A stretch of 64,000 nucleotides of DNA from Ruminococcus sp. (GCA_004558485.1 SFCS01000006.1:14041-78040), one strand, 5' to 3'. Numbered from the stretch's first letter, positions 1 through 64,000 are shown. Made by a program: numbers and translations. The notes: a model not told the origin generated them from the sequence alone.

Positions 1-1361
1 TAGTTGCCACCCGTGTTGTAGCCGCAGTGACCGCTCACCGTCATATAGTAGACAGAGAACGGCTGCTTGCCGATATACTGCGGCGCCGTGAAGCGCATCA
101 TTTCCAGATCGCTCTCCGGCCAGGTCGGCTTCACGCCCGCCTCCATGCCGTTGCCCATGCCGATATAGTCGGCATAGCCGAGATTTTTGTGCGTCTTATC
201 TCTGCCGTAATAGGAATAGGTGTGGTCGTGATAGGCGACGCTGAAATAGCCGAGCCGTTTCAGTTGATTGCCCATGGTGAGATAGAGATTGTGACCGATC
301 GTCTGTTTCATGCTGGACACGCCCGCCGTCGGCACAAGCCCCATGACATTGGAGTATTCACCTGTCGAGGTGCTGCCGCCCCATGCGGGCTGATAATAGT
401 CGGTGAATTTGATGCCCTTGTTGGCAAGGCGATAGAGCGTCGGCGTCATTTGCGGGTCGATGACCTCGGCGGAAAACGCCTCCGCTGTGATGAAAATAAG
501 GTTTTTGCCCTTGAAAAGTCCGGTGTATTCGTTCTGCTTCGAGGGGGTGAGTGAGGCGACATAGCGGTGCATCGCCGCGAGCTTTTCGTCGCTCGTCGCG
601 GCGGCAAGCGCCTCGAAATCGAGGTTCATGACATTGTCCCCATACACTATGGGCTCCGGCTCTTGCGGCGGCTCATCCTTCGGCTCGGTGTCCACATCGT
701 CAAATTCGCCGTCGCCGGGGAACAGCAGATGGCCGAAGTCCAGCCGCAGCGCCGCGCCGAGACCGAAACCGCGCACCGCGCCGTCAAAGTCATATTCATT
801 CGTATAGCGGTTTTTGTCAGGGGAGACGGTGAGCGCAAAAATGTGCGCGAGAAGGAACGCGACAACACAGAAAACGCCGAGCGCCAACCGCCGCCGCAGC
901 TTGTTGACGGGGCGCTCTTTTCTGCCGCGGTTAAAGATGCAGAAGAATACGATCGGCGCCGCCACCAGCAAAATGCGCCAAAGCCCGCCGAGAAGGATAG
1001 AAACGATCGTGCCGGAATATTCTCCGACCACGCCGCCCGCGCCGCTGAAGATGGAGCGCGGGGACATGAACATCTTGAAGAAATCCTGCACGAAATATTC
1101 CGTCAGGCAGGCGACGCCGCAGACGGAGGAAATGACGATCGCAATGACCCGCCGCACGGTGACGGTGCGCCCGAACGAGGCGGCAAACGCAAACAGAAAG
1201 CCCGCCGACAGCGCAAAAAGGGTGATGCACACAAAGCGCCAAAAGCTCGCGCCCTGCATGGTGAAAAAGTGCAAAAGCCACTCGTCATAGACGGCGACAA
1301 ACAGCAAAAGCGCCCAGTGAGGGATGCCCACCGTCTGTTCGCGGAAATGTTGTTGTTTCAA
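1..1361 (-). CDS. LTA synthase / sulfatase-family membrane protein, 3'-truncated by the window edge
   Basis: Own minus-strand translation from TTG at 1361 (RBS GGGAGAG): five N-terminal TM helices, then a sulfatase-like domain (…TGEYSNVMGLVP…). Not in the ORF track because it lacks a stop within the window. Confidence 0.6.
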   Translation of the reverse strand, partial: MKQQHFREQTVGIPHWALLLFVAVYDEWLLHFFTMQGASFWRFVCITLFALSAGFLFAFAASFGRTVTVRRVIAIVISSVCGVACLTEYFVQDFFKMFMSPRSIFSGAGGVVGEYSGTIVSILLGGLWRILLVAAPIVFFCIFNRGRKERPVNKLRRRLALGVFCVVAFLLAHIFALTVSPDKNRYTNEYDFDGAVRGFGLGAALRLDFGHLLFPGDGEFDDVDTEPKDEPPQEPEPIVYGDNVMNLDFEALAAATSDEKLAAMHRYVASLTPSKQNEYTGLFKGKNLIFITAEAFSAEVIDPQMTPTLYRLANKGIKFTDYYQPAWGGSTSTGEYSNVMGLVPTAGVSSMKQTIGHNLYLTMGNQLKRLGYFSVAYHDHTYSYYGRDKTHKNLGYADYIGMGNGMEAGVKPTWPESDLEMMRFTAPQYIGKQPFSVYYMTVSGHCGYNTGGN

Positions 1362-1507
1362 GTGTATCTCTCCCTAATATATACTGAAAAATGATTTTTT
1401 TCGACAAGGTCAGTGTAGCACATCCCACCCCGAAAAGCAAGCCGAAAAATCCCGACGGAATGTCGTACAGGCAGGGCGGCATATGGTTTGGTGAAGGGGG
1501 TCATTTT

Positions 1508-2203
1508 ATGTTTTCGGCGCTTTTTGAGCTTTTGTCCGGCGTTTTCTATATGGTGCTGCATGTCGCCACGGGCGGCAGCTTTCCGAAACCGCTCTCCGTC
1601 GAAAAGGAGCGCGCCTATTTTGTCGCGTTTCACGAGATGGGCGACAGGGAGGCGCGCAGCGCGCTCATCGAGCACAACCTGCGTCTGGTGGCGCACATCA
1701 TCAAAAAATACTATGCCGGTGCAAAGGATCAGGAGGATCTCATTTCCATCGGAACGATCGGGCTGATCAAGGCGGTGGACACCTTTGACTATACAAAAAG
1801 CCGCCGCCTGGCGACCTATGCGTCCCGCTGCATTGAGAACGAAATTCTGATGTATTTCCGCGCGGAGAAAAAATATGCGCAGGATGTGTCGCTGTCCGAG
1901 CCGATCGACACCGACAAGGAGGGACACCCGCTGACGCTGCTCGATGTGCTGGCGGACGAGAGCGATCTCGCCGCCAATGTGGATCTGCGGGTGAACAGCC
2001 AGCATCTGGCGCGGTATATCCGCGAATGTCTCACCGATCGGGAGATCGAGATCATCCGCTTGCGCTACGGGCTGTGCGGCGATCCGCTCACACAGCGTGA
2101 GGTCGCGAAAAAGCTCGGCATTTCGCGCTCCTATGTTTCCCGCATTGAGAAAAAAGCGCTCGAAAAGCTGCAAGAGCGCTTTGAACAACCCGACACCCCG
2201 TGA
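1508..2203 (+). CDS. sigK: RNA polymerase sporulation sigma factor SigK (pro-sigma-K), uninterrupted
   Basis: Residues align to B. subtilis SigK (IEHNLRLVAHI, LISIGTIGLIKA, YASRCIENEILM, ISRSYVSRIEKKAL). ATG at 1508 follows RBS GAAGGGGG; a short pro-peptide precedes SFPKPLS. Confidence 0.8.
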   Translation: MFSALFELLSGVFYMVLHVATGGSFPKPLSVEKERAYFVAFHEMGDREARSALIEHNLRLVAHIIKKYYAGAKDQEDLISIGTIGLIKAVDTFDYTKSRRLATYASRCIENEILMYFRAEKKYAQDVSLSEPIDTDKEGHPLTLLDVLADESDLAANVDLRVNSQHLARYIRECLTDREIEIIRLRYGLCGDPLTQREVAKKLGISRSYVSRIEKKALEKLQERFEQPDTP

Positions 2204-2206
2204 GGG

Positions 2207-3166
2207 TCATCCCTCCGTTACCCTGGTACAAAGCCGGGCAAGCTCCTCAAGCGTTGTGAGCTTGCCTGCCTCCACCCGCAGCGCCGCCGCACCCGGCAGC
2301 CCGCGCATATACCAGGCGGCATGCTTGCGCGCCTCCAAGACCGCGACGCGCTCGCCCTTGTAGTCTGCGGCAAGCGCCGTCTGACGGAAAAGCGTCGCCA
2401 TGCGACGGGAAAGCGGCGGCGGGGGCAGCGTTCTGCCCTCGCAGAGCAGGGCATTTATCTCGGTGAACAGCCACGGCGCGCCGAGCGCCCCTCTGCCCAC
2501 CATGATGAGATCGCAGCCGGTGTCCTCATACATGGCGGCGGCGTCCGCCGCCGTGAAAATGTCGCCGTTGGCAATGACGGGAATGGAAACGGCCGCCTTG
2601 ACGCGACGGATACAGTCGCGGTCAACGGGCGGGGCATACATCTGCGCGCGGGTGCGTCCGTGCACCGTCACGGCATCCGCACCGCCTGCCTCGACGGCAC
2701 GTGCGACCTCGACGGCAACATCCTCATCCTTTTGAAAGCCGCGGCGAATTTTTGCCGTCACCGGCACGGGCACGGCATCCTTCACCGCCCGCACGAGCTT
2801 CTCGCAAAGCTGCGGCTCAGCCAAAAGGGCGCTGCCGCAGTGATTGCCGACGATCTTCGGTGCGGGGCAGCCGAGGTTTATATCGATGATGTCGGGGCGG
2901 TATGCCATGGCGAGCTCTGCCGCCTTGGCCATGATGGCGGGATCGTCGCCGAAAAGCTGCACGGCGGCGGGACGCGCCGTGTCGTCCAGCGCCAAAAGCT
3001 CCCTGCTTTTGCGGTCGCCGAAAAGCAGCCCCTTGCAGCTCACCATTTCGCCGACCGTGTACGCTGCGCCGAAATCGACGCAGATTTGCCGAAACGCGCG
3101 ATCGGCGACACCCGCCATCGGAGCGAGTGCCGCCATGCCTTTTATCTCCACATTGCCGATAAACAT
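2207..3166 (-). CDS. dusB: tRNA-dihydrouridine synthase
   Basis: Dus family motifs (LAPMAGV.D, DINLGCP, TVHGRTR) and TIM-barrel FMN-enzyme length. Confidence 0.8.
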   Translation of the reverse strand: MFIGNVEIKGMAALAPMAGVADRAFRQICVDFGAAYTVGEMVSCKGLLFGDRKSRELLALDDTARPAAVQLFGDDPAIMAKAAELAMAYRPDIIDINLGCPAPKIVGNHCGSALLAEPQLCEKLVRAVKDAVPVPVTAKIRRGFQKDEDVAVEVARAVEAGGADAVTVHGRTRAQMYAPPVDRDCIRRVKAAVSIPVIANGDIFTAADAAAMYEDTGCDLIMVGRGALGAPWLFTEINALLCEGRTLPPPPLSRRMATLFRQTALAADYKGERVAVLEARKHAAWYMRGLPGAAALRVEAGKLTTLEELARLCTRVTEG

Positions 3167-24704: not shown

Positions 24705-24849
24705 CTTTGCAGAAAAATACCGTAGGCACTCCGGCATACGGACGGACAGGCGGACTGCGGCGCACGGAGACAGCTGCTTAATGCTGCTCGGTTCCCCGCC
24801 TGACATGGTTCACAGCGCACCGTCGCGCAGGACCCATCCGTCCGTATGC
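24705..24849 (-). ncRNA. ffs: signal recognition particle RNA (small 4.5S-like form) with its own promoter
   Basis: Minus-strand promoter TTGACT-17-TATAAT. Long terminal helix (ccggcatacggacgg / ccgtccgtatgccgg). Domain IV motif AUGUCAGGCGGGGAACCGAGCAGC matches GUCAGG-NCCGGAAGGAAGCAGC. Ends in UAUUUUU just before the dnaX RBS. Confidence 0.75.
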
Positions 24850-24909
24850 CGGAATGTATACGGCATCTCTTATTATATGTGTACGGCGGCGAAAAGTCAA
24901 GAGCGCCGC

Positions 24910-51879: not shown

Positions 51880-52075
51880 AAACACCCTCCGATCTTACAA
51901 AGTCCGACGCCCGCACATGGGCGGCGCTTTGTCCCACGGAGGGAAAACGCCGTATGTACAGTGGGATGCGGCATGTGAACCGCAGCCGCCCGCCCGCGGC
52001 CTTTCGTCCGCGCGGCAACTCCCCGTCCGCGCGGCACTGGTGGAAACTCCACACGCTCACATGCCTACTCTGTAC
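51880..52075 (-). ncRNA. THF (tetrahydrofolate) riboswitch with translational expression platform
   Basis: Minus-strand leader AGAGTAGGCATGTGAGCGTGTGG…GCCGCGCGGACGAAAGGCCGCGGGCGG matches the THF consensus AGAGUAGG…GCGUUAAGUG…CGCGGAACGAAAGCCGG. A downstream CCCTCCGTGGG can pair with the RBS GGAGGG. Promoter TTGCAA-17-TATACT. Confidence 0.55.
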
Positions 52076-55964: not shown

Positions 55965-57341
55965 ATGGAACTGCCCGCGGCATTTTGCCGCCGCATGGAG
56001 CGGCTGCTCGGCGCGGATGATAAGCGCTTTTTTGAAAGCTATGGGACACCCCTGCGGCGCGGCGTGCGGGTAAACTTGCTCAAAACGGACAAAGAGCGGT
56101 TTTTGTCGCTTTTCCCGCTGCCGCTTGTCCCTTCGCCCTTTGCGGCGGACGGATTCTATCTTGACGCACCGCACAAGGCAGGCGGCGATCCGCTGTTTCA
56201 CGCGGGTGCTTACTATATGCAGGAGCCGTCGGCATCGGCGGCGGTGACGGTGCTGTCCCCGCAGGCGGGAGAAAGAATCCTCGACCTTTGCGCCGCGCCG
56301 GGCGGCAAATCGACGCAGATCGCGGCGGCGCTCGGCGGGACGGGGCTTTTGTGGAGCAACGAATATGTCCGCGCCCGCGCGCGCATTTTGGGACAGAATG
56401 CGGAGCGCTGCGGCGTGCGAAACGCCGTGCTTTCCTCCTCGGATGCGGAAACGCTGGCGCGGGGGCTGCCCGCCTTTTTCGATGCGGTGCTGGTGGATGC
56501 ACCGTGCTCGGGCGAGGGGATGTTTCGCAAGGAGCCTGCCGCTCTTTCCGAATGGAGCGAGGACAATGTGGCGCACTGTGCCGCAAGACAGCGGGACATT
56601 TTAGATGCGGCGGCGAAAACGGTGAAGGCAGGCGGCCGGCTTGTCTATTCGACCTGCACCTTTGCGCCGGAGGAAAACGAGTGCACGGCGGCGTGGTTTC
56701 TGGAAACCCATCCCGATTTTGAGCCGCTGCCCATCGCCGTTTCGTTCGGCGAGGCGGGGTTTGCCTTTGATCGCGTGGCGGCGTTCGACAAAACGGTGCG
56801 CGGTGCGCGATATGATGCGGCGGCGTGCAGGCGCATTTTGCCCTGGCACGGCGGGGAGGGGCATTTCATCGCCGCTTTTCGCCGCACGGACGCGCCGCCG
56901 ACCGTGCCCGCCCCCTTTGTGTATCCGAAGGATAAAAACGCCGATGCCGCGGCAGCGCTGTTTTGCGACTGCTTTGCGGGCGAGATGTACGGCGTGCCGC
57001 TGACGGTAGGGGACACCGTGCGGCTGCTGCCGGCGGGACTGCCCGCTTTCTCCGGGCTGCCCGTTCTGTCGGCGGGGGTCGCGCTCGCGGCGGTGTGCAA
57101 AAATCGGCTCGAACCGTGCCACGCCGTGTTTGCCGCCGCAAGGGCGGCAGAGTGCCGGCGGCTTTTGTCGCTGCCGCCGGCGGACGCGCGCCTTGCCGCC
57201 TTTTTGCACGGTGAGGAGCTGCAGACGGACGGGGCTGCGGGCTTCACGGCGGTCGCGGTCGCAGAAATTTCCGTCGGCTTCGGCAAGTGCGCGGGCGGAC
57301 GCCTCAAAAACCGCTACCCGAAGGGGTTGAGAAATTTTTGA
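55965..57341 (+). CDS. RsmB/RsmF-family 16S rRNA m5C methyltransferase (NOL1/NOP2/Sun)
   Basis: SAM-MTase motifs (DLCAAPGGKS, DAPCSGEG) and a C-terminal PUA-like region. ATG 55965 after GGGGGGAAAG. Confidence 0.75.
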   Translation: MELPAAFCRRMERLLGADDKRFFESYGTPLRRGVRVNLLKTDKERFLSLFPLPLVPSPFAADGFYLDAPHKAGGDPLFHAGAYYMQEPSASAAVTVLSPQAGERILDLCAAPGGKSTQIAAALGGTGLLWSNEYVRARARILGQNAERCGVRNAVLSSSDAETLARGLPAFFDAVLVDAPCSGEGMFRKEPAALSEWSEDNVAHCAARQRDILDAAAKTVKAGGRLVYSTCTFAPEENECTAAWFLETHPDFEPLPIAVSFGEAGFAFDRVAAFDKTVRGARYDAAACRRILPWHGGEGHFIAAFRRTDAPPTVPAPFVYPKDKNADAAAALFCDCFAGEMYGVPLTVGDTVRLLPAGLPAFSGLPVLSAGVALAAVCKNRLEPCHAVFAAARAAECRRLLSLPPADARLAAFLHGEELQTDGAAGFTAVAVAEISVGFGKCAGGRLKNRYPKGLRNF

Positions 57342-57349
57342 TATACCCC

Positions 57350-57378
57350 TTGCAAAGTATGGCAAAATCGGTTAGAAT
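57350..57378 (+). promoter_or_regulatory. sigma-A promoter of the pgk operon
   Basis: TTGCAA-17-TAGAAT, about 50 nt upstream of pgk. Confidence 0.5.
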
Positions 57379-57429
57379 AGATACGAAAATCGGCATACTG
57401 CCGGGTTGTAAAGAAAGGGTGCTTACAGT

Positions 57430-58641
57430 ATGAGTTATCTGAGCAAAAAAAGTGTAGAAGATCTCGATGTCGCGGGCAAGCGCGTTCTCGTGCGCTGTGA
57501 CTTCAATGTGCCGCTCAAGGCGGGCGTCATCACCGATGAAAACCGCATTGTCGCCGCACTGCCCACCATTCAGTATCTGATCAATCACCACGCGAAGGTC
57601 ATCCTTTGCTCGCATCTCGGCAAGCCGAAGGGTGAGCCGAAGCCGGAGCTGTCGCTGGCGCCCGTTGCGGTGCGCCTGGCGGAAAAGCTCGGCCGTCCCG
57701 TCGTGTTTGCCGCGGACGACAATGTGGTCGGCGAAAACGCGAAAAAGGCGGTCGCCGAAATGAAGGACGGCGATGTGGTGCTGCTGCAGAACACCCGCTA
57801 TCGCCCCGAGGAGACGAAGAACGGCGAGAACTTCTCGAAGGAGCTGGCGTCGCTTTGCGATCTGTTCGTCAATGATGCGTTCGGTGCGGCGCACCGTGCG
57901 CACTGCTCTACCGTGGGTGTCGCCTCCTTTGTGAAGGAGTCCGCCAACGGCTATCTGATGGCGAAAGAGGTCAAGTATCTCGGCAATGCCGTCAACGACC
58001 CTGCCCGTCCTTTCATCACCATTCTCGGCGGCGCGAAGGTCTCGGACAAGCTGGCGGTCATTGAGAACCTGCTGAATGTTGCCGACACGCTCATCATCGG
58101 CGGCGGCATGGCATACACCTTCCTGTATGCGCAGGGCTATAGCATCGGCACCTCCCTGCTCGATAAGGAAAAGGTCGACTACTGCAGGGATATGCTCGCA
58201 CGCGCCAAGGAAAAGGGCGTGAAGATCCTGCTGCCGGTCGACTGCGTTGCCGCAAAGGCGTTCCCCGATCCGATCGACGCGCCGATCGAGACCAAGGTGT
58301 TTGCAACCGGCGAGGTGCCGGATGACATGATGGGTCTCGACATCGGCCCGAAGACCGGCGAGCTGTTCGCAGCGGAAATCAAGAACGCCAAGACGGTCAT
58401 CTGGAACGGCCCGATGGGCGTTTCGGAGAACCCGGCGCTCGCGAACGGCACGATTGCCGTTGCGAAGGCGATGGCAGCGTCTGATGCCATCACCATCATC
58501 GGCGGCGGCGACTCCGCTGCTGCGGTCAACAACCTCGGCTTCGGAGACAAGATGACGCACATCTCCACCGGCGGCGGCGCGTCCCTCGAGTTTTTGGAGG
58601 GCAAGGAGCTGCCCGGTATCGCCGCAATGACCGATAAATAA
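57430..58641 (+). CDS. pgk: phosphoglycerate kinase
   Basis: Full-length Pgk (…RCDFNVPL…, …[12 protein letters not shown]…). Confidence 0.95.
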
Positions 58642-58713
58642 AACCTGCCATTTTCCGCACGGTGAGCTTTTCACCGTGCGGAAATCGCCGTTATACAGAA
58701 AGGAATGGACAAC

Positions 58714-59466
58714 ATGGGAAAATATGTAATTGCCGGCAACTGGAAAATGAACAAGACGCCCGCCGAGGCAAAGGAGCTGATCGACGCGATCCGCCCGCTG
58801 GTGAGCGACGCGAAATGCGATGTGATCGTCGGCGTGCCGTTCGTGGATCTCCCGACGGCGCTTGAGGCGACGAAGGACACGAACATCGGCGTTGCCGCGC
58901 AGAACTGCCACTGGGAGAAGAGCGGCGCGTTCACGGGTGAAATTTCCGCCGAAATGCTCAAGGCGATGGGCGTCGGCTATGTCATCCTCGGCCACAGCGA
59001 GCGCCGCACCTATTTCGGCGACACCGATGTGACGGTGGCAAAGCGCGTGCGCGCGGCGCTGGATGCGGGGCTCACGGTTATCCTTTGCGTCGGCGAATAT
59101 CTCGAGCAGCGCGAGCAGGGCATCACCGCCGAGGTTGTTGCCATGCAGGTCAAGGTGGCGCTGCAGGGCGTGTCCGAGGAGGAGCTTTCTCGCATCATCA
59201 TTGCCTATGAGCCGGTCTGGGCGATCGGCACGGGCAAGACCGCGACCGCAGGGCAGGCAAACGAGGTCTGCGCGCACATCCGCGCGACCGTCGCCGCGCT
59301 GTACAACGACAAGGCGGCAAAGGCGCTCACCATTCAGTACGGCGGTTCGATGAACGCGGGCAACGCAGCAGAGCTTCTGGCACAGGCGGATGTCGACGGC
59401 GGTCTTATCGGCGGCGCGTCCCTGAAGCCGAACGATTTTGCCACAATCGTCGCCGCTGCGAAATAA
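58714..59466 (+). CDS. tpiA: triose-phosphate isomerase
   Basis: GNWKMN, AYEPVWAIGTG and GGAS motifs. Start taken at the second ATG, 9 nt after AAAGGA. Confidence 0.95.
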   Translation: MGKYVIAGNWKMNKTPAEAKELIDAIRPLVSDAKCDVIVGVPFVDLPTALEATKDTNIGVAAQNCHWEKSGAFTGEISAEMLKAMGVGYVILGHSERRTYFGDTDVTVAKRVRAALDAGLTVILCVGEYLEQREQGITAEVVAMQVKVALQGVSEEELSRIIIAYEPVWAIGTGKTATAGQANEVCAHIRATVAALYNDKAAKALTIQYGGSMNAGNAAELLAQADVDGGLIGGASLKPNDFATIVAAAK

Positions 59467-59481
59467 GAAGAGGTGGACACT

Positions 59482-60999
59482 ATGAAAAAACCGCTGACCC
59501 TTATCATCATGGACGGCTTCGGCATTTCCGATGAGACCTACGGCAACGCCATCAAGGCGGCAAAAACGCCGAACCTCGACAAGCTGTTTGCCGAAAACCC
59601 CTTCACCACCATCGGTGCCTCCGGCATGGATGTCGGTCTGCCGGATGGACAGATGGGCAACAGTGAGGTCGGTCACACCAACATCGGCGCGGGCAGAATT
59701 GTTTATCAGGAGCTGACCCGCATCACGAAATCCATCGAAGACGGCGACTTTTTTGAAAACGAGGCGCTGAAAAAGGCGATGGATGCCGCGAAAAAGGACG
59801 GCGCTGCGCTGCATTTGGCGGGACTTTTGTCCGACGGCGGCGTGCACAGCCACTTCCGCCACCTGCTGGGTCTCTTGGAAATGGCGAAAAGGAGCGGCGT
59901 CAAAAAGGTATTTGTGCACTGCCTGATGGACGGCAGAGATGTGCCGCCCACCTCGGGCAAGGATTTTGTCGCACAGCTGCAGCAGAAGATGCAGGAGATC
60001 GGTGTCGGCAGAATCGCCACGGTCACCGGCAGATACTATGCGATGGATCGCGACAACCGCTGGGAGCGCGTGGAAAAGGCATATGCTGCGATGGTATACG
60101 GTGAGGGCGTCGAGAACGCCGATCCGGTCGCTGCGGTGGAGGCATCCTATGCCGAGGGCGTCACGGACGAATTCATCGTGCCGGTGGTGTGCACCGGCAA
60201 AGAGGGCGTCATCAAGGCAAACGACGCGGTGGTGTTCTTCAACTTCCGCCCCGACCGCGCCCGCGAGATCACCCGCACGCTGGTCGATCCCGCGTTTGAC
60301 GGCTTTGAGCGCAAAAACGGGTTCTTCCCGCTGACCTATGTCTGCATGACGCAGTATGACGCGACCATGCCGGGCGTCGAGGTCGCTTTCCGTCCGCAGT
60401 CGCTGCACAACACGCTCGGACAGTATATCAGTGACAACGGCATGACGCAGCTGCGCATCGCCGAGACAGAGAAATATGCGCATGTCACCTTCTTTTTCAA
60501 CGGCGGCGTGGAAAAGGAATTCGCGGGCGAGGATCGCGCGCTCATCCATTCCCCGAAGGTCGCGACCTATGACCTGCAGCCCGAAATGAGCGCGCCGCTC
60601 GTTTGCGAGGAGGTCGTGAAGCGTATCCGCTCCGGCAAATACGATGTCGTTATCCTGAACTATGCCAACTGTGACATGGTCGGTCACACCGGCGTTTTCG
60701 ACGCTGCGGTGGCGGCTGTGGAGGCAGTGGATGAGTGCGTCGGCAAGACGGTCGCCGCGACGCTAGATATGGGCGGCGTGGCGCTCATCACGGCGGATCA
60801 CGGCAATGCGGACAAGATGTATGAGGCGGACGGCTCGCCGTTCACTGCACACACGACCGCGCTCGTGCCGTTCTGTGTGGTCGGTCATCCCTGCACGCTG
60901 CGCGAGGGCGGCAGACTGGCGGACATTGCGCCGACCATGCTGCAGCTGCTCTCTCTCCCGCAGCCCGCGGAGATGAACGGTGTTTCGCTCATAAAATAA
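59482..60999 (+). CDS. gpmI: 2,3-bisphosphoglycerate-independent phosphoglycerate mutase
   Basis: iPGM family (LIIMDGFG, …SEVGHTN…, …ADHGNAD…). Confidence 0.9.
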
Positions 61000-62037: not shown

Positions 62038-62165
62038 CAGATCGCCTCCTTTCTCCATCTTAACACAGATCTGTCACCGCCGCAATTCTTTTTTAGTTGC
62101 GCACATTCCCATTATATGGTATACTGGCTTCTGTGAGGGGGGCGTGTGCCTTGAATTTGATGCAT

Positions 62166-63080
62166 ATGAAATACGCGGTGGTGGTCGCCGAAACGCAGTC
62201 CATCAACAAAGCTGCCGAGCAGCTCTATGTCGGGCAGTCGGCGCTGTCCCGTGCCATCAAGGAGTTGGAGAGCGGACTGGGCGTCGTGCTGTTTCGCCGC
62301 AGCGCAAAGGGCATGTTCCTGACGCCGGACGGCGAGCTTTTCATGCGCAACGCGCGCAAGGTTCTGGCGCAGGTGGACGCGATGGAAAACCTGTTCAGCG
62401 CGGGAAAGAGCCGCAAAAAGCAGTTTTCCGTGTCCGTGCCGCGCGCAAGCTATGTGGCAAAGGCATTTGCCGCCTTCGCGGGGAGCCTCGACAAGAGCGT
62501 TGAGGCGGACATCTATTACCGCGAGACAAACGCTCTGCGCGCCATCCGCAATATTTTGCAGGAGGACTACCGCCTCGGCGTCATCCGCTATGCGGAGAGC
62601 TATGATAAATACTATAAGGCGCTCATGGAGGACAAAGGCCTTTGCTGGGAGGTCATCGCGCAGTTTCGGTATGTGCTGCTGATGAATGAAAAAAATCCTC
62701 TGGCGAAAAAGCCGAAGATCACCTATGCCGATCTGCGCGATCACACGGAGATTGCGCACGCCGACCCCTATGTTCCGTCGCTGCCCGCGGCGGAGGTCAA
62801 AAAGGACGAGCTGCCCGAGGATTTTCCCCGCCGTATTTTCGTGTTTGAACGCGCGAGTCAGTTCGAGCTGCTTGCGACAAACACCGACGCCTTCATGTGG
62901 GTGTCGCCCGTGCCGCGGGAAACGCTTGCGCGCTTCGGACTGGTGCAGCGCGCATGTGCGGATATGCAGCGGGAATATACGGATTTGCTCGTTTGCCGCA
63001 AGCAATACCGCTTCACCGACCTTGACAACCGCTTCATCGAGCAGCTCAAGGCGACGAAACGGGAAATTTTGGGAGAATGA
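62166..63080 (+). CDS. LysR-family transcriptional regulator
   Basis: N-terminal HTH (…INKAAEQLYVGQSALSRAIKELE…) and LysR substrate-binding domain. Promoter TTGCGC-17-TATACT. ATG 62160 is an alternative start. Confidence 0.8.
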   Translation: MKYAVVVAETQSINKAAEQLYVGQSALSRAIKELESGLGVVLFRRSAKGMFLTPDGELFMRNARKVLAQVDAMENLFSAGKSRKKQFSVSVPRASYVAKAFAAFAGSLDKSVEADIYYRETNALRAIRNILQEDYRLGVIRYAESYDKYYKALMEDKGLCWEVIAQFRYVLLMNEKNPLAKKPKITYADLRDHTEIAHADPYVPSLPAAEVKKDELPEDFPRRIFVFERASQFELLATNTDAFMWVSPVPRETLARFGLVQRACADMQREYTDLLVCRKQYRFTDLDNRFIEQLKATKREILGE

Positions 63081-63122
63081 CGCCGTACCGCACTCACTGA
63101 CGGCGGTGTCCTGAGCAGTAGG

Positions 63123-63172
63123 AAGCCCTCCGATCGGGTACAGCTTGCCGTGCCTGATCGGAGGGCTTTTAT
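63123..63172 (+). terminator. terminator after the LysR gene
   Basis: AAGCCCTCCGATC…GATCGGAGGGCTTTTATTATTTT. Confidence 0.65.
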
Positions 63173-63548
63173 TATTTTCCGAACAGGCGGGAGAAAAAGC
63201 CGTCTCCGACAGGATGCGAAAGTCGACAAACACGCCGATACCGAGGGCGATCATCAGGAGCACGGAAATGAACTGTGTCTTATACTGGCGCATGGTTCTC
63301 CATAATTTGCGCAGCATTTTTTGAAAAATCGCAAAAAAGCGCATAGGGAAAATGTGTTGACCCGAAAAAGGAGGCACCCCCGATGCGGTATAACAGAATA
63401 TCTCAAACCGCCAAAATGGCGCATAATATCCCTGCCGGAGAAAAGGAAGCCCATGTGCACATACTATGTTCCCCTATACCTTAAACTTGCAAAGATTTAA
63501 TGCTTGCTGCGCCTTGTCTTTTTTGATTATTTGAGTGATATATTTACT

Positions 63549-63748
63549 TTGTCAAAATTTCCAATTGTGTATAGTTGTTATAACTTGACAGTTTTGGGTA
63601 TTGTGGTATATTATAGGTGAGAAGAGTACCATTCGCGACGATCTTTTGCCCTTGCTGATTTACGTCTGCAGCTAAGCCGCGAGCTTATCGAAATCTAATA
63701 TGTGTTCGTTAGCGGCTGACATATGTTTAGCCGCTTTTTGCTTTTTGT
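63549..63748 (+). promoter_or_regulatory. tandem strong promoters driving a short (about 130 nt) terminated transcript in AT-rich DNA
   Basis: TTGTCA-15-TGTGTATAGT and TTGACA-16-TGGTATATT, then the hairpin AGCGGCTGACATATGTTTAGCCGCT and TTTTTGCTTTTT at 63711-63748. Confidence 0.45.
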
Positions 63749-64000
63749 GAGGATCGAATGAGCAAAGTTGTGTATCATTTAAGAGAGTAGACGGAATGGG
63801 ATTTAATTTTTATGAACCTACAATATATACAAGCCGGTTGACAATCCTTTGAGGGATTTTAAGACTTATAAAAAGCGGCGTAAAGGATAGCGATAGTTAT
63901 TCTGCGAACATGTCAGAGAGCGGCAATGAAGAAAATGAGTCCGAGGGTACAACCAAAACGGATATTCCACCCGGTGAAAATATATAATTGTAAAAAATTC

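Follow-up and report, generated by a model that had tools for sequence, protein, structure and literature searches.

In this study, we analysed a window of 64,000 nucleotides, meaning the whole stretch of DNA under examination, from the genome of an uncultured gut Clostridia bacterium of ~60% GC, and found that the AT-rich sequence at its right edge is most likely (with a probability of roughly 0.8) the left 661 nt of a ~1.6-kb, repeat-flanked and decayed remnant of horizontally acquired DNA. This insert runs from window position 63340 to ~64950, so that its part inside the window is 63340..64000 (plus strand). A decayed islet of 1.6 kb is a known kind of thing and fairly ordinary; its wider relevance is that a sharp GC cliff at the edge of a window can mimic the border of a prophage or ICE, when the segment in question is 1.6 kb in length, has long been resident and is not to be counted as a mobile-element boundary.

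The compositional shift is pronounced. An earlier note on this DNA had described an abrupt change to below 40% GC at the right edge, and this holds: GC falls to 37.6% over the window's final 500 nt and is 37.0% in 63480-64000, against a mean of 59.7% (sd 4.3%) for 500-nt segments across the window, the minimum outside the edge stretch being 47.6%. The edge stretch lies ~5 sd under the window mean and is the sole long stretch below 42% GC. Measured over 200 nt, the terminal run below 42% is long and covers 63361-64000, and the six other spots below that value are all short (200-320 nt). The insert has 43% GC as a whole and 39% in the 661 nt inside the window. Its first 140 nt have 48% GC and are inconspicuous by eye; the boundary, previously placed at 63480, lies 140 nt further left, at 63339/63340, as determined by alignment of filled versus empty alleles.

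Sequence beyond the window was read from metagenome contigs. The LysR-type regulator is encoded at 62160-63080, and an identical protein is encoded on 14 metagenome contigs. Three loci (L004, L006 and L041) are 99.3-99.6% identical to the last 2 kb of the window and have the gene order LysR, a low-GC segment with a 260-aa gene, and a class IV aminotransferase that clears the NCBIfam cut-offs for the branched-chain aminotransferase IlvE. The whole insert and ilvE are spanned by five independent contigs (L004, L006, L034, L035 and L041) from genomes that are at least 95% identical, with 1,633 nt between one repeat copy and the other in L004 and L006. In L004, L006, L034 and L041, GC per 100 nt is 29-50% in the insert and 52-71% from ilvE onward. 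In L034, a longer contig from a close relative, ilvE is followed by genes for a type III glutamine synthetase (glnA), Amt/PII and an asparagine synthase (asnB). The earlier note had named a prompt rise back to high GC at housekeeping genes as speaking against its own reading, and these contigs show just that (ilvE, and in L034 also glnA, amt and asnB).

Whereas the border of a prophage, ICE or island would be expected to open a low-GC tract of many kb, the tract here is only ~1.6 kb. A scan of the 64-kb window for tRNA and tmRNA genes found none, in keeping with the earlier remark that neither a tRNA nor an integrase is visible at the junction, and searches of the insert with Pfam, PHROGs, NCBIfam and PADLOC found no integrase, recombinase, transposase, phage or conjugation genes. 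The insert had no match in phage or plasmid collections (blastn, distant mode), nor in viral contigs, which were searched via the protein alignment. Integrases usually target tRNA genes or gene 3' ends; the insertion site is between an ABC ATPase gene and the -35 box of ilvE, and is neither beside a tRNA or tmRNA gene nor in the 3' end of a conserved gene. What had been taken for the edge of an island with its contents outside the window is a segment of ~1.6 kb with one intact gene and no mobility genes.

The native ilvE promoter to the right of the insert is a perfect TTGACA-17-TATAAT. In the region upstream of ilvE (L004 8186-8364, equivalent to window ~64974-65152; L009 2373-2551; L011 10799-10978), the promoter is followed by a conserved AT-rich leader of ~150 nt, with 35-45% GC for the native promoter and leader, and a terminator-like hairpin, GGCAACGG...CCGCTGCC, with a T-run stands at the leader's end, just ahead of the RBS. 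Searches of Rfam with the ilvE leader returned nothing at E<=1. Judged by this layout, the hairpin is a possible candidate for an attenuator of ilvE.

The insert is flanked by a direct repeat. The left copy, TTTTTTGAAAAATCGCAAAAAAG, is present in the window at 63317..63339 (plus strand), and the right copy lies outside it, at ~64951-64973. The repeat is a perfect 26-mer in L034, AAATTTTTTGAAAAAACGCGAAAAAG, and in the window lineage it is 23 nt long with 1-2 mismatches, the copies in L004 being TTTTTTGAAAAAACGCGGAAAAG and TTTTTTGAAAAAATGCGGAAAAG. Two copies are present in every filled locus whose contig covers the insert completely (L004, L006, L034, L035 and L041). By comparison, the repeat sequence is single-copy, directly upstream of the ilvE -35 box, in two loci that are without the insert. 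The first, L011, is from a sister species (UMGS1163) whose LysR is 93% identical. The second, L009, is a conspecific contig that runs from LysR to ilvE with flanks 98.6-99.9% identical to those of L004. The empty conspecific allele is represented by this one contig, of 3.8 kb. Logan assemblies are built with a k-mer of 31, and since the 23-nt repeat is shorter than that, collapse of the assembly in L009 is unlikely.

The repeat is a discrete core, as similarity at the junctions beyond it was not significant, and neither was a longer decayed duplication outside the repeat nor a pair of terminal inverted repeats of the insert, which 40 of 500 shuffles equalled. In the 64-kb window the repeat motif and the insert have a single copy each, and among the 44 loci retrieved both occur nowhere but at this locus; an nhmmer search over all 44 loci and the window sequence returned the known copies only, and the site is the same in all 14 insert-carrying loci. 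The target is rich in A/T runs, near-palindromic and upstream of a promoter. Four independent assemblies have contigs that end at or inside the insert (L001 at window position 63812, L002 at 63790, L008 at 63402 and L010 at 63290), breaks that fit strain-level heterogeneity in the form of filled and empty alleles and an indel of ~100 nt.

The native locus to the left of the insert is itself eroding. The LysR gene ends in an intrinsic terminator at 63122..63179 (plus strand; a 20-bp stem and a T-run) that is native, being found also in filled, empty and sister-species loci. An intact set of genes with native GC lies between LysR and ilvE in L011 and L034, coding for a cupin, a methyltransferase, a small HMA protein, a 759-aa FtsX-type permease and an ABC ATPase. 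In the window lineage the cupin, the methyltransferase, most of the permease and the ABC ATPase are gone through several separate deletions. Comparison of L009 and L004 with L011 by blastn placed the decayed native HMA and FtsX permease genes at 63172..63317 (minus strand), as 30 nt of the HMA 3' end and a 37-nt internal and a 97-nt 5'-end piece of the FtsX-type permease gene, with identities to L011 of 93%, 86% and 90%. The permease gene's ATG is at 63317-63315 on the minus strand, reading MLRKLWRTMRQYKTQFISVLLMIALGIGVF..., and this minus-strand start is there because the 5' remnant of the gene was kept. Since the HMA and permease remnants lie between, LysR and the GC cliff are not truly adjacent, and the shift does not follow directly upon the LysR terminator as had been thought. 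Very long antisense ORFs also occur in the window, such as 57304-60687 (minus strand; 1127 aa opposite pgk-tpi-gpmI) and 62112-63377 (minus strand), which we rejected as genes and regard as the usual artefact of high GC.

A source for most of the insert was found in five loci of 40-41% GC (L036-L040), to which its DNA is 74-91% identical in five collinear or rearranged blocks. These donor-type loci have an operon that encodes a Big_14 lipoprotein of 153 aa, a lipoprotein of 296-300 aa and a trypsin-like protease of 317 aa. The blocks are, from left to right, the donor region upstream of Big_14 (63583-63753, 79% identity); a 91-nt Big_14 pseudogene fragment (63754..63844, plus strand, 91% identical to L038 565-656), in which residues ~54-75 are recognisable by tblastn at 86% over 22 aa; a displaced piece of the lipoprotein gene corresponding to the N-terminal linker, codons ~27-60 (63873..63971, plus strand, 84% identical to L038 965-1063); the Big_14 3' end with the intergenic RBS and the lipoprotein start (63981-64137, of which 63981..64000 is in the window, plus strand, 74%); and the rest of the lipoprotein gene, which is outside the window and 83% identical to the donor lipoprotein gene. 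The only intact gene of the insert is that for the 260-aa lipoprotein, which begins at ~64057, just past the window end.

The displaced fragment sits upstream of its gene's own start, and the block is missing in L034. The protein P0003 reads ...DMSESGNEKNASKGTTKTDIPPK... at the point where the intact 260-aa protein has a gap of 34 residues. The 25-aa ORF at 63910-63987 (MSESGNEENESEGTTKTDIPPGENI), the example given when the stretch was correctly described as having only tiny ORFs, runs through this fragment and shares MSESGNE.N.S.GTTKTDIPP with P0003; it is a displaced piece of the lipoprotein gene and not a gene. The insert is derived from the Big_14/lipoprotein/trypsin-like protease operon of a ~40% GC organism and has been cut down by internal deletions and rearrangement to a promoter and leader, two pseudogene fragments and one intact gene. 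The earlier suggestion of acquired DNA is borne out in that the segment is absent in L011 and L009, is flanked by repeats and is 74-91% identical to loci of ~40% GC.

The cargo belongs to a rare family: a set of 5.8 billion clusters contained only five relatives of the 260-aa protein, and one of 1.84 billion contained 17 representative clusters. It is 66-67% identical to P0003 and P0004, both from contigs of ~40% GC, and members of the family always adjoin genes for a trypsin-like protease and/or Big_14, on contigs of 27-44% GC. Its structural model (mean pLDDT 77.6) has a signal/lipobox helix, a disordered linker and two beta-sandwich domains, the best structural matches being Gram-positive pilin/CnaB-type domains, and Pfam gave sub-threshold matches only (CarboxypepD_reg and Big_1). 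The model suggests that the cargo is probably a surface lipoprotein whose partner protease was not kept. Divergent from the leader in L039 are genes (318-2302, minus strand) for a 459-aa secreted and a 202-aa membrane-anchored protein, neither with a precomputed Pfam match on record, and as a whole the donor neighbourhood has the look of a secreted-protease island from an organism of ~40% GC.

The first ~240 nt and the last ~90 nt of the insert had no match among the retrieved loci, and neither tblastn nor six-frame reading of these ends found remnants of donor-locus proteins or of a recombinase. The left segment, 63340..63582, includes a 33-aa ORF with a strong RBS (63383-63484, plus strand), a promoter-like site on the minus strand, TTGACA-18-AATAAT (63555 to 63526, 11/12), and a weak terminator-like hairpin (63386-63374, minus strand). 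The ORF had no match in Pfam, PHROGs or PADLOC, and three of the few differences in it between lineages are nonsynonymous; with no family match and these differences, it is unsupported as a gene. A small RNA on the minus strand (63555 to ~63374) was likewise dropped, as its fold had a z of +0.82 versus shuffles and it had no homolog. There is also a marginal match of 25/32 between the left segment, CAAACCGCCAAAATGGCGCATAGTATCCCTGC, and the native ilvE promoter, CAAACGGCAAAAAGCGCGTATAATAGCCTGC, located ~63-95 nt past the left repeat in L034 (window ~63404-63435), which may be due to chance because 13 of 500 shuffles equal it.

Comparison of the two host lineages indicates that the insert is old. 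Between L004 and L034 it is 95.3-95.9% identical and its flanks are 95.1-97.4% identical (the flanks of L011 being 87-93.5% identical), and since the divergence of the insert equals that of the flanks in two host lineages, it is old and vertically inherited. The insert was already in the common ancestor of the two lineages, which are now ~95-96% identical. On the simplest reading the insert arrived once, after the split from UMGS1163 but before the two carrier lineages parted, and has since been passed on vertically. Since L009 has the private deletions of the window lineage, the simplest account of its empty site is that the insert was lost there secondarily and precisely, across the repeat.

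The lipoprotein gene has 20 nonsynonymous and 12 synonymous codon differences between L004 (7269-8051) and L034 (10001-10783), versus 9 and 28, respectively, in the LysR gene of the same lineages. The excess of nonsynonymous differences indicates relaxed or diversifying selection, and together with the pilin-like fold it hints at a surface function under such selection. The locus illustrates on a small scale the decay of acquired DNA in a gut commensal, from an operon fragment to a single surface-lipoprotein gene, the remnant retaining its foreign GC, promoter and leader beside an eroding native locus and having flanking repeats that permit its clean loss.

We consider the insert most likely to be a decayed integrative element with its att-like repeats retained. 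A larger element would have entered by site-specific recombination at an att-like core of 26 nt, immediately upstream of the -35 box of ilvE. Loss of the recombinase and of most cargo would later have reduced it to a CIME-like remnant, which conspecific L009 would then have lost by precise recombination between the repeats. Site-specific integration is favoured because a unique target has a perfect 26-nt duplication and because the insert was once larger, as its internal mosaic indicates, and mobility genes could have been among the parts that it lost. The 44 loci and the collections (the public ones searched via the cargo protein) contained neither a cognate integrase nor an intact parent element, and since no source was matched for the left 240 nt and the right ~90 nt of the insert, these cannot be shown to be the ends of an element.

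A serious rival, although less likely than not, is that an integrase was never involved, and a short fragment was captured by illegitimate or microhomology recombination or by staggered-break fill-in, the direct repeat being a by-product of repair and the empty site of L009 a repeat-mediated deletion. Such a capture would be consistent with the lack of any detectable recombinase remnant, with a target that is rich in A/T runs, near-palindromic and upstream of a promoter rather than a classical att, and with the proneness of the locus to deletion, four genes having been lost by separate events. However, the perfect 26-nt duplication is, to our knowledge, longer than the target duplications of either transposition or end-joining, and the internal mosaic shows that the insert was formerly larger.

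The insert brought its own expression signals. The imported promoter, TTGACA-16-TGgTATATT with an extended -10 (63585..63612, plus strand), scores 11/12 and is conserved in donor-type loci. It stands back to back with the minus-strand site at 63555, which is also sigma-70-like and scores 11/12. The consensus promoters claimed for this stretch accordingly exist as two near-consensus sites, but they are not perfect, and they are not special to it: near-consensus promoters occur elsewhere in the window at 24900, 48517 and 51049, all on the minus strand, the last scoring 12/12. Two structured RNAs were identified elsewhere in the window, a THF (tetrahydrofolate) riboswitch at 51957-52074 (minus strand; 74.9 bits versus a gathering score of 36) and the bacterial small SRP RNA at 24741-24839 (minus strand; 67.1 bits), the 11/12 promoter at 24900 (minus strand) being just upstream of the latter.

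The promoter is followed by an imported 5' leader of ~125 nt with an intrinsic terminator (63619..63750, plus strand), the terminator stem occupying 63711-63735 and the T-run reaching ~63745. Promoter, leader and terminator are kept in both donor types, 63583-63753 being 79% identical. In L036 and L039, both of donor type, a GGGAG RBS and the ATG of Big_14 come within ~10 nt after the terminator, and the generic layout of an attenuator (promoter, conserved leader, terminator just before the RBS) is found in both. In the window the Big_14 gene after the terminator is gone, and the next intact gene is ~310 nt on. The imported promoter would still fire, and the terminator would limit, and probably attenuate, read-through to the lipoprotein gene.

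Besides the terminator, a consensus fold of the leader has a UUCGCG/CGCGAA helix that spans a long range and a small hairpin in which two pairs are compensatory; 98.9% of cells pair in this fold versus 32-44% in slid controls. The covariation amounts to those two compensatory pairs in just four sequences, and 34 of 500 shuffles were as good; the single-sequence MFE was no better than that of shuffles (z -0.32). An upstream AAGCCGC, as read from the sequences, repeats the 3' arm of the terminator and could pair alternatively with the 5' arm. Rfam 15 at E<=1 gave no match in 63340-64000 or in the donor loci, and for the full insert only a chance-level leu/phe-leader on the opposite strand (24 bits versus 70). 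Further leader homologs for covariation are lacking because a metagenome scan with the cargo protein alignment gave one further locus, which was near-identical.

Could the unit from promoter to terminator (63585-63750) be an independent small-RNA gene, and so explain the AT-rich, ORF-poor stretch? A strong promoter, an intrinsic terminator ~125 nt later and 79% sequence conservation with the donors would suit one, although we think it improbable, as the terminator in the donor loci directly precedes the RBS and ATG of an operon, no Rfam family matches and the fold is no more stable than those of shuffles. A terminator that abuts the RBS and ATG in the donors indicates the layout of an attenuator and not a free-standing small RNA.

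More speculative, and to be held at a low level of confidence as a joint proposal, is that the leader (63619-63750) is an undescribed cis-regulatory RNA and that, separately, the 26-nt repeat is the att of an integrase that targets the ilvE promoter. If this were true, the leader would be a riboswitch or protein-dependent attenuator of a protease/surface-lipoprotein operon in low-GC gut Firmicutes that entered this host together with the lipoprotein gene, and the remnant might still be excisable in trans. As a candidate for a new regulatory RNA, the imported leader is a modest one.

It is quite unlikely that the insert is a still-mobile, non-autonomous element, MITE-like or mobilised in trans, with L009 as an excision product or a site that was never occupied. 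Direct repeats on either side and a site that is precisely empty in a conspecific would fit such an element, but there is a single copy in the 64-kb window, the site is the same in all 14 carrier loci, terminal inverted repeats are absent, and the equal divergence of insert and flanks speaks for long vertical residence; in addition, the cargo family has just 17 clusters among 1.84 billion.

The last two alternatives have very little probability left. The left border of a prophage, ICE or large island extending beyond the window would agree with the genuine GC drop and with the foreign origin of the DNA, but low GC ends after ~1.6 kb with ilvE next in all five spanning contigs, glnA-amt-asnB of native GC follow ilvE where a contig reaches that far (L034), and there are no integrase, phage or conjugation genes, no tRNA and no phage, plasmid or viral match. 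Equally remote is a long AT-rich intergenic, promoter or leader region native to the host, the alternative offered in the earlier note, which is wrong because the segment is an insert: other intergenic DNA of the host is also AT-rich with consensus promoters, but this segment is missing in L011 and L009 despite conserved flanks, is flanked by a duplicated target sequence and has homology to both coding and non-coding DNA from an organism of 40% GC.

The remnant can be compared with several known systems. Like MITEs and IS-derived elements, the insert is small, free of a transposase and bordered by direct repeats; unlike them, it is single-copy, is without terminal inverted repeats and carries a cargo gene. 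The target duplications of IS elements and MITEs are 2-14 bp, far shorter than its repeat of 23-26 nt. With generic genomic islets it shares an atypical GC, presence/absence polymorphism, a single accessory surface-protein gene and conserved housekeeping neighbours, and it differs from them in being an identifiable, rearranged fragment of a donor operon and in being old, not recent. The leader resembles the terminator/anti-terminator leaders of Firmicutes in that the donor loci have a promoter, a conserved leader of ~100 nt and a terminator before the RBS and ATG; it departs from known Firmicutes attenuators and riboswitches in having no Rfam match, no known ligand or protein partner and weak covariation, and the gene that it originally preceded is deleted in this host.

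The closest comparison is with CIMEs, integrated elements that have lost their recombinase and most of their cargo and have kept att-like flanks (PMC5704250). At 1.6 kb the insert is much smaller than these, its target is upstream of a promoter instead of in a tRNA gene or gene 3' end, no cognate ICE or IME that uses the same site was found, and the empty site of L009 is compatible with excision without being diagnostic of it. Nevertheless, the insert resembles a CIME in that it is flanked by direct repeats that are single-copy, and thus attB-like, in the empty genomes L011 and L009, in that it is without genes for integration or transfer and shows pseudogene fragments and rearrangement, and in that a precise empty site exists in the population.
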